Of a stretch of DNA of 64,000 nucleotides, positions 1,058 through 18,062 are shown piece after piece; position 1 is the first letter of the stretch, and each line of letters begins with the position of its first letter. The stretch lies in NCBI RefSeq assembly GCF_003018115.1, contig NZ_CP027457.1. One strand, given 5' to 3'. The stretch is from Escherichia coli. Lineage in GTDB: Bacteria; Pseudomonadota; Gammaproteobacteria; Enterobacterales; Enterobacteriaceae. The position numbers and the translations under genes are program-made. The notes under the pieces were generated by a model that searched no databases, was not told where the DNA came from, and was given only the letters and a program-made list of their open reading frames with translations.

Positions 1058-1161
1058 ACGTTCCTCCTTTATATGAACTCACCGGAGCAGGCTCCGGTGA
1101 GGTGTTGTGAACTTAAGTCTGGACGAAATGCCCGAAAACGAAAGTTTGAGGCGTAAAAAGC

Positions 1162-5695: not shown

Positions 5696-6430
5696 GTGGG
5701 TAATAATTTAATGCAGACGGACCTTTCCGTCTGGGGTATGTATCAGCACGCCGATATTGTCGTTAAGTGCGTGATGATTGGGCTTATTTTGGCCTCCGTA
5801 GTCACCTGGGCAATCTTCTTCAGTAAGAGCGTAGAGTTCTTCAATCAGAAGCGTCGCCTTAAGCGCGAGCAGCAACTGCTGGCTGAAGCGCGTTCCTTAA
5901 ACCAGGCCAACGATATCGCCGCTGATTTTGGTAGCAAAAGCTTAAGCCTGCATTTGCTCAATGAAGCGCAGAATGAGCTGGAACTGTCAGAAGGCAGCGA
6001 CGATAACGAAGGTATTAAAGAACGTACCAGCTTCCGTCTGGAGCGTCGGGTCGCCGCAGTAGGTCGTCAAATGGGCCGCGGTAACGGCTATCTGGCAACC
6101 ATCGGCGCGATTTCGCCGTTCGTTGGTCTGTTTGGTACGGTCTGGGGCATCATGAACAGCTTTATTGGTATCGCGCAAACGCAGACTACTAACCTGGCAG
6201 TCGTTGCGCCGGGTATCGCAGAAGCTCTGTTAGCAACGGCAATCGGCCTCGTGGCAGCGATTCCTGCGGTCGTTATCTATAACGTATTCGCGCGTCAGAT
6301 TGGCGGCTTTAAAGCGATGCTGGGTGATGTCGCAGCGCAGGTATTGTTGCTGCAAAGCCGTGACCTGGATCTGGAAGCCAGCGCCGCTGCGCATCCGGTT
6401 CGTGTCGCACAAAAATTACGTGCAGGATAA
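5696..6430 (+). CDS. exbB: TonB-system energising protein ExbB
   Basis: 244-aa ORF recognised as ExbB; followed 6 nt later by exbD. Confidence 0.95.
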   Translation: MGNNLMQTDLSVWGMYQHADIVVKCVMIGLILASVVTWAIFFSKSVEFFNQKRRLKREQQLLAEARSLNQANDIAADFGSKSLSLHLLNEAQNELELSEGSDDNEGIKERTSFRLERRVAAVGRQMGRGNGYLATIGAISPFVGLFGTVWGIMNSFIGIAQTQTTNLAVVAPGIAEALLATAIGLVAAIPAVVIYNVFARQIGGFKAMLGDVAAQVLLLQSRDLDLEASAAAHPVRVAQKLRAG

Positions 6431-6436
6431 TGTCCG

Positions 6437-6862
6437 ATGGCAATGCATCTTAACGAAAACCTCGACGATAACGGCGAAATGCATGATATCAACGTGACGC
6501 CGTTTATCGACGTGATGTTGGTTCTGCTGATTATCTTTATGGTGGCGGCACCGTTAGCGACGGTAGATGTGAAGGTTAACTTGCCTGCTTCTACCAGCAC
6601 GCCGCAGCCGCGCCCGGAAAAACCGGTTTATCTGTCGGTGAAGGCAGACAACTCGATGTTTATCGGTAACGATCCGGTCACCGATGAAACAATGATTACG
6701 GCGTTGAATGCGTTAACCGAAGGCAAGAAAGACACCACCATCTTCTTCCGAGCGGATAAAACCGTCGATTACGAGACGTTGATGAAGGTAATGGATACGC
6801 TGCATCAGGCGGGTTACCTGAAGATAGGTCTGGTCGGCGAAGAAACCGCCAAAGCGAAGTAA
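6437..6862 (+). CDS. exbD: TonB-system protein ExbD
   Basis: 141-aa ORF recognised as ExbD; single N-terminal TM segment. Confidence 0.95.
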   Translation: MAMHLNENLDDNGEMHDINVTPFIDVMLVLLIIFMVAAPLATVDVKVNLPASTSTPQPRPEKPVYLSVKADNSMFIGNDPVTDETMITALNALTEGKKDTTIFFRADKTVDYETLMKVMDTLHQAGYLKIGLVGEETAKAK

Positions 6863-6871
6863 AGTAGAATT

Positions 6872-7080
6872 GCCTGATGCGCTACGCTCATCAGGCCTAC
6901 AAAATCTATTGCAACATGTTGAATCTTCGTGCGTTTGTAGGCCGGATAAGGCGTTCACGCCGCATCCGGCATTAGGTGCTCAATGCCTGATGCGCTACGC
7001 TTATCAGGCCTACAAAATCTATTGCAACATGTTGAATCTTCATGCGTTTGTAGGCGGATAAGGCGTTTTCGCCACATCAG
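6872..7080. repeat. tandem REP/BIME array (two ~110-bp units)
   Basis: gcctgatgcgctacgct(c/t)atcaggcctacaaaatctattgcaacatgttgaatcttc...gtaggc(c)ggataaggcg occurs twice in tandem; palindromic REP cores. Confidence 0.8.
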
Positions 7081-7100
7081 GTAAGAGTGAATTCACAATG

Positions 7101-7135
7101 ATGCCCGGTTGCTTTTCACAACCGGGCATTTTTTT
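7101..7135 (+). terminator. rho-independent terminator of exbBD
   Basis: hairpin atgcccggttg-cttttca-caaccgggcat followed by ttttttt; directly abuts yghA stop on the opposite strand. Confidence 0.6.
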
Positions 7136-8018
7136 AACCTAAATGCTCGCCGCCGCACACACCGTGCACTTCTGCGGTGACGTAGCTCGACTCCTGACTT
7201 GCCAGATAAACATATACAGGGGCCAGTTCCGCCGGTTGCCCCGCACGTTTCATCGGCGTTTGCTGACCAAACTGCGGGATCTTATCCTGCGTTTGTCCGC
7301 CGGAAATTTGCAGTGCTGTCCAGATCGGGCCTGGCGCGACAATATTTACCCGAATACCTTTCTCCGCGACCTGTTTTGCCAGGCCTCGGCTGTAGTTCAG
7401 AATCGCCGCCTTCGTAGCCGCATAGTCCAGTAAATGCGGACTTGGCTGGTATGCCTGGATTGACGAAGTGGTGATAATACTTGCACCTTTCGGTAGCATG
7501 GGGATCGCTTCCTGGGTTAGCCAGAACAGCGCGAAAACGTTAATGGCAAAGGTCTTTTGAAACTGTTCGCTGGTGAGGTCTGCAATATCCGGAATGGCAA
7601 CCTGTTTCCCGGCGACCAGCGCCATAATATCCAGCCCGCCTAAGGCCTTATGCGCTTCGTGAACTAGCGAACGGGCAAATTTCTCATCGCTTAAATCGCC
7701 TGGCAGCAGAACGGCTTTGCGTCCGCATTCTTCAATGATCTTTTTCACATCCTGAGCGTCTTCTTCTTCCACGGGAAGATAACTGATCGCCACGTCAGCC
7801 CCTTCACGCGCGTAAGCGATGGCGGCAGCGCGACCGATTCCGGAATCGCCCCCTGTCACCAGGGCTTTACGATCTTTCAGGCGACCGCTACCAACATAGG
7901 TTTTCTCGCCGCAATCCGGTACCGGTGTCATCTTCGCCTGGATGCCTGGCGTCGGTTGTTTCTGTTTGGGATATTCACCAGTGTAATACTGCGTGGTTGG
8001 GTCTTTTAAATGAGACAT
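7134..8018 (-). CDS. yghA: NADP-dependent short-chain dehydrogenase/reductase
   Basis: 294-aa ORF with SDR glycine-rich motif (VTGGDSGIG); recognised as YghA. Confidence 0.9.
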
Positions 8019-17967: not shown

Positions 17968-17980
17968 TGATTAGCTTTCG

Positions 17981-18062
17981 TAGGTCTGATAAGACGCGGC
18001 AGCGTCGCATCAGGCATTGTGCTCGATTGCCGGATGCGGCGTGAACGCCTTATCCGGCCTGG
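17981..18062. repeat. REP element pair (BIME)
   Basis: taggtctgataagacgcggcagcgtcgcatcaggc and gccggatgcggcgtgaacgccttatccggcc palindromic units between hybG and yghU. Confidence 0.75.

Follow-up and report, generated by a model that had tools for sequence, protein, structure and literature searches.

REP222, a tandem pair of BIME-1-like units between the convergent exbD and yghA genes of Escherichia coli

A pair of palindromic repeat units lies downstream of exbD in a stretch of Escherichia coli DNA of 64,000 nucleotides (the window), and it raises the questions of what kind of element this is, how old it is and what it might do for the genes on either side. The locus had been flagged in an earlier note, made from the sequence alone, as two near-identical REP/BIME units whose likeness suggested a recent duplication. 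The REP/BIME cluster at exbD is already known: it is catalogued in the K-12 strain as REP222, under the names REP222a-d and REPv222e, and Murashko et al. 2023 (PMC10100675) attribute it to exbBD as well as to yghA. The name comes from the literature, and the K-12 RefSeq feature table contains no REP feature in this region. REP222 of K-12 MG1655 occupies the same locus with the same two-unit architecture, and no substantive difference from the array in the window was found. With high confidence, the array is therefore read here as REP222, that is, as two tandem BIME-1-like units, each built of a Z1 REP, a 36-nt L-like linker and an inverted Y, with the history and the RNA-stabilising role proposed below.

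The locus and the anatomy of the array

The intergenic region between exbD and yghA measures 271 bp and follows the exbD stop codon (TAA, 6860-6862). According to the list of open reading frames, with names as given by RefSeq in matching genomes, the neighbouring genes are metC (minus strand), exbB (5696-6430, plus strand), exbD (6437-6862, plus strand), yghA (7134-8018, minus strand, stop codon at 7134-7136), yqhA and gpr, with yghA convergent to exbD. Over positions 6650-7350 the window was 99.4% identical to K-12, and its source is a different strain. The product name given to exbB by PGAP is 'tol-pal system-associated acyl-CoA thioesterase' (e.g. WP_000527844.1), as against 'Ton complex subunit ExbB' in K-12, and seems to be an error of naming that has been propagated.

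An intrinsic terminator for exbBD, comprising a hairpin and a T-run, was located on the plus strand at 7100-7136, directly adjoining the yghA stop codon. The terminator scan described the hairpin, at 7100-7130, as 12 pairs, seven of them G-C, followed by TTTTT, and its folding energy was -20.5 kcal/mol (z -6.0). The pattern was found on the plus strand only, and the same scan detected no U-tract on the minus strand. The array between the exbD stop codon and this hairpin is an extragenic REP cluster at the 3' end of a transcription unit, located between two convergent genes.

The tandem REP/BIME pair itself is real, its placement between exbD and the terminator hairpin is as the earlier note stated, and its units were delimited as 6871-6983 and 6984-7099. 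A repeat search returned a direct repeat of 72 nt (6871-6942 and 6984-7055) that is 97% identical at a spacing of 113 nt and that resumes past a 1-nt indel, at 6943-6969 and 7055-7081, with 85% identity. A chance match is excluded, as the probability of at least 70 matches in 72 positions is ~1e-39 per offset pair. Global alignment of the whole units gave 102 identical columns of 119 (86%). The description of the units as near-identical holds for the first three quarters of each: the Z1 REP, the linker and the first 19 nt of Y (6871-6955 compared with 6984-7067) are identical at 82 of 85 positions (96.5%), whereas the 3' remainder is identical at only 20 of 34 (59%), and the difference between the two parts is pronounced (Fisher p = 9e-7). 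Tandem Repeats Finder, run over 6000-8000 with a minimum score of 30, returned no rows for this array of 1.9 copies and 113-bp period. The miss, despite 97% identity over the first 72 nt, represents a blind spot of that program for two-copy BIMEs.

The elements are arranged in the order Z1(+), L', Y(-), s, Z1(+), L', Y*(-), so that the REPs alternate in orientation as expected of a BIME. The first REP (6871-6900, plus strand) is a short Z-type element, Z1, ending in CTAC, with one substitution relative to the consensus and a hairpin of -15.3 kcal/mol (z -5.5); its stem starts at 6872, 9 nt past the exbD stop codon. It is joined tail-to-tail by the 36-nt linker L'a (6901-6936), a diverged relative of the L linker of BIME-1 that contains the palindrome CAACATGTTG, to the second REP (6937-6971, minus strand), a canonical inverted Y that reads GTAGG...GGCA on the plus strand, has no substitution relative to the Y consensus and folds at -20.9 kcal/mol. 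A 12-nt head-to-head linker, TTAGGTGCTCAA (6972-6983), which aligns with the linker of the Rfam naRNA4 model, connects the two units. The second unit begins with a Z1 REP (6984-7013, plus strand) that has no substitution relative to the consensus and a hairpin of -13.2 kcal/mol, continues with the 36-nt linker L'b (7014-7049), which differs from L'a at one position, and ends with a degenerate Y, termed Y* (7050-7081, minus strand), in which 28 of 35 positions are identical to the second REP. The hairpin found for this fourth REP, at -9.6 kcal/mol (z -2.3), is weak and is not the canonical REP fold. The remaining 18 nt before the terminator form a tail, TAAGAGTGAATTCACAAT (7082-7099), with a distant likeness to the inter-unit linker.

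Stem-foot tetranucleotides typical of REPs were present in all four elements, as CTAC at 6897-6900 and 7010-7013 and as GTAG at 6937-6940 and 7050-7053. The first three REPs fold singly at -13 to -21 kcal/mol, in agreement with the palindromic-unit consensus, and a 701-nt query that included the REPs matched a median of 33 places per genome, as expected of a high-copy element. When the region 6860-7140 was folded and compared with shuffled controls, the plus strand gave -110.8 kcal/mol (z -6.6) and the minus strand -112.1 kcal/mol (z -6.9). On both strands the inverted REP doublet can fold as one long hairpin.

Elsewhere in the window, a second tandem BIME array was observed at 50324-50632, just downstream of a 1,525-aa open reading frame (45745-50322). 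Its period is ~130-133 bp and it comprises slightly more than two units, 91-92% identical to one another, with Y REPs at 50327, 50460 and 50589 that are separated by Z-like REPs. Rfam matches above the gathering score were also obtained for a C0719 sRNA (43296-43517, minus strand, 293 bits), an ES173 sRNA (1096-1159, minus strand, 99 bits) and a tRNA (62565-62637, minus strand, 68 bits).

Classification of the units and their linker

Published rules distinguish BIME-1, made of z1, y and a long L linker with an IHF site and present as a single copy per locus, from BIME-2, made of z2, y and a short S linker and present in tandem copies, and recognise atypical BIMEs, in which BIME-1 and BIME-2 motifs are chimeric and occur in multiple copies (Ton-Hoang 2012, PMC3333891). 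The short Z at exbD was assigned to Z1 because the Z2 arm of the naRNA4 model is 7 nt longer and because the canonical BIME-1 downstream of dppA pairs a short Z with L. Each exbD unit thus has the z1-L-y composition of BIME-1 (RIB/RIP), in that an inverted Y is joined tail-to-tail to a Z1 by a linker of 36 nt; this linker carries ATTCAA-N4-TTG as does the canonical L, ATTCAATATATTG, and the array stands at the 3' end of a transcription unit. Unlike BIME-1, which is found as a single copy, the exbD locus holds two units in tandem, and its linker is locus-unique and only 68-70% identical to the high-copy canonical L.

The tandem repeats, the alternating REPs, the short head-to-head linker and the copy number that varies among strains recall BIME-2, as exemplified by REP325/naRNA4 between yjdM and yjdN. 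In contrast to BIME-2, the Z at exbD lacks 7 nt of the apical stem of Z2 and the tail-to-tail linker is 36 nt long, so that the combination of z2 with S is absent; REP325 also comprises six units, as against two at exbD. REP325 is described in the Harris 2026 preprint as both a terminator and a stabiliser in a 3'UTR. BIME-1 parts (z1, an L-like linker and y) arranged in tandem and joined by a short head-to-head linker in the BIME-2 style are what is found in an atypical BIME, and by the published rules the exbD array is an atypical BIME built of BIME-1-like units.

The linker was compared with the canonical L downstream of dppA, and 25-26 of 37 columns were identical for L'a and L'b (68-70%). 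As a query it was found in 3,796 genomes at a median of 2 places per genome, and it is confined to this locus; up to 4 places were returned in some genomes, and the two-unit junction query gave 2 places in one genome. For canonical L together with Y, the median was at least 34 places per genome. Each linker contains an IHF-like core, ATTCAACATGTTG, on the minus strand at 6924-6912 and 7037-7025, the two cores being 113 bp apart. Relative to the IHF consensus WATCAANNNNTTR the core has a single mismatch, and canonical L deviates at this very position. The IHF-type core of each linker, like the IHF-binding L of BIME-1, is predicted to bind IHF, a prediction based on a 13-nt core with one mismatch in a linker only 68-70% identical to canonical L. 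A literature search for IHF ChIP at REP elements returned nothing specific to this locus.

Alleles, outgroups and the age of the array

The number of units was determined in 5,426 complete E. coli genomes with junction-specific queries, for which the E-value cut-offs could be reached only by a contiguous alignment. Query coverage is unfit for such counts, as segments of a record are reused and a one-unit genome scores 98% of the two-unit query. Comparison of copy number across E. coli genomes, the check that the earlier note had proposed, found zero, one or two units and never three. The two-unit junction (linker-Y-s-Z1-linker) was present in 3,502 genomes (64.5%), including K-12 MG1655, BL21, strain C and O157:H7. 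An empty site, in which the exbD TAA is followed by AAATG and the terminator, was detected in 1,626 (30.0%), and a one-unit allele in 93 (1.7%). A further 172 (3.2%) carry an IS621-like element inside the second Z1 REP, and 33 (0.6%) belong to none of the four allele classes. A synthetic three-unit junction query matched none of the 5,426. A sequencing or assembly artefact is excluded, as thousands of independent complete genomes share the same allele.

The K-12 array differs from that of the window by one base. Two substitutions distinguish the units, a C/T difference in Z1 and a G/A difference in the linker, and both are shared by the window, K-12 and an IS-carrying strain. The one-unit allele combines the C of unit 1 in Z1 with the A of unit 2 in the linker and ends in the degenerate Y. 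The C in Z1 appears to be derived and specific to unit 1, because E. albertii and a divergent Escherichia lineage carry T at that position. As the single unit is a hybrid of units 1 and 2 and the C is derived, the allele is best read as a deletion from the two-unit array by unequal crossover.

Alignment with the window showed that the segment absent in the empty allele is exactly 233 bp (6864-7096), with the junction GCGAAATAAAAATGATGCCC and no microhomology. The distance from the exbD stop codon to the terminator is then 5 nt, and exbD, the terminator and yghA are intact. All empty alleles examined have a synonymous AAG to AAA change in the last exbD codon (6858-6863 in the window; ~506-520 in the retrieved segments), whereas the codon is AAG in all filled alleles and in the Escherichia outgroups. 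The empty junction occurs on two flank haplotypes, at least 99% identical to the window in 134 genomes and 95-99% identical in 1,491, and the linkage of AAA to the empty site on both flank types suggests a single origin followed by recombination. The number of units largely tracks the flank haplotype, the empty site occurring mostly with flanks of ~97% identity and filled sites mostly with flanks of at least ~99%.

A role for REPIN/RAYT (TnpA-REP) mobility in these changes was considered. An inverted REP doublet of the REPIN type is present at exbD, and the TnpA-REP model of BIME diversification and amplification would explain a change in unit number (Ton-Hoang 2012, PMC3333891). However, the junction of the 233-bp polymorphism lacks the C^T cleavage motif reported in vitro (PMC3333891), and the one-unit allele can be explained by ordinary homologous exchange.

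In NZ_OW849377.1, an IS110-family element of ~1.28 kb annotated as IS621 lies in the second Z1 REP (223-1500 of the retrieved segment; 7006-7013 of the window). The insertion point is ...TTATCAGGCCT^[IS]^CTACAAAATC, and the junctions of the element read ATCAGGCCT^...^CTACAAAA. This IS621-like insertion illustrates the targeting of a defined REP by IS621.

The outgroup comparison was made with ExbD-carrying species-representative genomes among the matches listed, in which E. fergusonii, Salmonella and an E. coli representative did not figure. E. albertii NBRC 107761 contains a single homologous unit at the corresponding site; its flanks are homologous too, and the terminator is the same. The unit consists of a Z1-like REP, an L of 36 nt with 76% identity to the canonical one, and a degenerate Y. 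In this strain only ~30 nt of the 3' end of yghA are left downstream of the terminator (retrieved segment 2080-2700), and the C-terminus of gpr (...ELNLWQASSDK*) is reached within ~100 nt, which points to a deletion of yghA and yqhA. A second genome, labelled E. coli, has flanks only 93-95% identical to the window and so probably represents a cryptic clade. Its two units are unlike each other: the first is made of Z1, a 21-nt linker, Y and TTCGGTGCTTAA, and the second of Z2, a 25-nt linker and a degenerate Y. Among the matches listed, Enterobacter, Citrobacter, Pseudescherichia, Kluyvera and others had no REP at the site. The terminator is kept in the empty-site alleles and in the outgroups, and the tail TAAGAGTGAATTCACAAT is conserved as a flank in both E. 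albertii and the divergent genome. From the alignments, the fourth REP of the window is judged orthologous to the degenerate Y of these two genomes.

The presence of a unit at the same site in E. albertii implies that the element is older than the split between E. coli and E. albertii. The two-unit architecture is, by the same sequence comparison, probably older than E. coli itself; Y and the short linker are generic motifs, for which independent acquisition is conceivable. As both Escherichia outgroups are filled, secondary loss is, on these two genomes, the more parsimonious origin of the empty allele. The polarity of events is that given by E. albertii and one divergent Escherichia genome.

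The proposal in the earlier note that the near identity reflects a recent duplication is unsupported by these data. A strain-level tandem duplication of a ~113-bp segment, whose copies are alike through lack of time, would account for the 82 of 85 identical positions in Z1, linker and 5' half of Y and for the period of exactly 113 nt. At the level of the strain it is refuted by the occurrence of the same allele, with the same inter-unit differences, in the 3,502 two-unit genomes, K-12, BL21, C and O157:H7 among them; a two-unit array is also found in the Escherichia lineage with 93-95% flanks, and identity drops to 59% in the 3' quarter of the units. Identity this uneven does not fit a single 113-bp duplication of uniform age, and a recent duplication is accordingly considered very unlikely. 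Local homogenisation, or rebuilding inside an old array, fits the pattern better than a fresh duplication; the 85-nt block may have been homogenised by gene conversion, unequal exchange or REP-specific rebuilding. Such a homogenised old array fits the published observation that tandem BIME copies within a locus are well conserved and that their number varies among strains (Ton-Hoang 2012, PMC3333891).

The history proposed for REP222 runs as follows. By the time E. coli and E. albertii diverged, a Z1-L-Y element would already have occupied the space from the exbD stop codon to the terminator, and the array would have had two units before E. coli diversified. Later, the 85-nt block of Z1, linker and 5' half of Y would have been homogenised, either through gene conversion or through unequal exchange. 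Subsequently, the array may have shrunk to one hybrid unit in 1.7% of genomes, been lost altogether in 30% and been hit by a REP-targeting IS621-like element in 3.2%.

A probable structured 3'UTR shared by exbBD and yghA

The array most likely forms a structured 3'UTR common to the convergent exbBD and yghA transcripts. In K-12, Northern blotting detected a yghA mRNA of ~1,000 nt and, with a probe over the REPs, an intermediate of ~300 nt, both of which were stabilised by fluoride (NaF) ATP depletion and by inactivation of RNase E; exbB and exbD rise in the same cluster as yghA (Murashko 2023, PMC10100675). These data give direct evidence for transcription of the minus strand of the array and for its action as a REP-type block to 3' decay. 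Since the T-run of 7100-7130 is present on the plus strand only, transcription of yghA should run through into the array, and the stable folding of both strands and of the single REPs also agrees with such a block. On the RNA, the REP hairpins, or one composite hairpin of ~210 nt, stop 3'-to-5' exonucleases, and the removal of REP-protected transcripts and decay intermediates requires ATP-dependent degradosome activity, as experiments on yghA/REP222 in K-12 have shown. In the Harris 2026 preprint, REPs act as terminators or stabilisers according to context, and convergent gene pairs that contain a REP are reported to be expressed at elevated levels. A hairpin less than 16 nt past a stop codon is reported to stall terminating ribosomes and cut translation (Liang 2015, as summarised in PMC12306157). 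The first hairpin of the array, 9 nt past the exbD stop codon, is within this range and may lower ExbD output.

The main competing view holds that the REPs are selfish or neutral and have no host function at this locus, the array persisting by local recombination and by proliferation specific to REPs, and acting on RNA incidentally. The 30% of genomes with an empty site and an intact exbD, terminator and yghA speak for it, and indicate that the array is dispensable, perhaps close to neutral. The fourth REP has decayed, the linker differs among lineages, and the strong terminator hairpin of the exbBD transcript would already protect its 3' end. According to the Harris 2026 preprint, REPs have no uniform effect on half-life genome-wide and terminal REPs do not lengthen it. 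Set against this are the measurable stabilisation of REP222-bearing yghA RNAs in K-12 (PMC10100675) and the retention of an element at this very position from a time earlier than the divergence of E. coli and E. albertii. We regard the absence of a host function as possible, at rather less than even chances. Note that such neutrality is compatible with the structural description given above, and disputes adaptive value alone.

Other functions fit the locus poorly. An sRNA gene of the naRNA4 type, producing a Y-linker-Z transcript that binds HU and organises the nucleoid, is suggested by a match to Rfam RF02564 at 6940-7010 on the plus strand (68.1 bits, above the gathering score of 59.5), and naRNA4, which is made of Y and Z2, is reported to bind HU and condense DNA (Qian 2015). 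The model, however, captures any head-to-head REP pair: the minus strand here also scores 50.2 bits, and a head-to-head Z2-Y pair at 17980-18062, with the 11-nt linker TTGTGCTCGAT, scores higher (84.8 bits at 17983-18059). The Z arm of the exbD pair is Z1 and lacks 7 nt of the Z2 of the model, a scan found no promoter-like site adjoining the array, and the part of REP325/naRNA4 in chromosome compaction is itself disputed, the Harris 2026 preprint reporting none that was measurable. The sRNA gene was rejected as a generic REP-pair match, and its existence is held to be highly improbable. A small protein gene would have to use the open frames of 63 aa (6870-7061, plus strand), which spans the REP array, or 40 aa (6955-7077, minus strand). 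The K-12 locus tags skip from b3003 (yghA) to b3005 (exbD), and the gap suggests a withdrawn ORF call in the intergenic region; yet Pfam gave no match for any of the three ORFs overlapping the array, these ORFs are made of REP palindromes, RefSeq places no feature there in nearly all genomes, and 30% of genomes lack the entire segment, so that a coding function is left with next to no probability. More speculatively, the two putative IHF sites 113 bp apart and the REP hairpin 9 nt past the exbD stop codon might together form a tunable exbBD/yghA insulator-attenuator, in which the polymorphism of zero, one or two units would set ExbD/TonB-energiser levels by lineage and the clean 233-bp empty allele would have arisen by RAYT-type excision rather than by ordinary deletion; this we consider unlikely.

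Variation in BIME copy number among strains was described decades ago, and what the present analysis of REP222 adds is modest: a natural allelic series of zero, one or two units, or of two units interrupted by an IS621-like insertion, and the frequency of each allele across 5,426 genomes. The series could be used to test the effect of REP dosage in a shared convergent 3'UTR on mRNA decay, on termination and on the translation of exbBD, which belongs to the TonB system.
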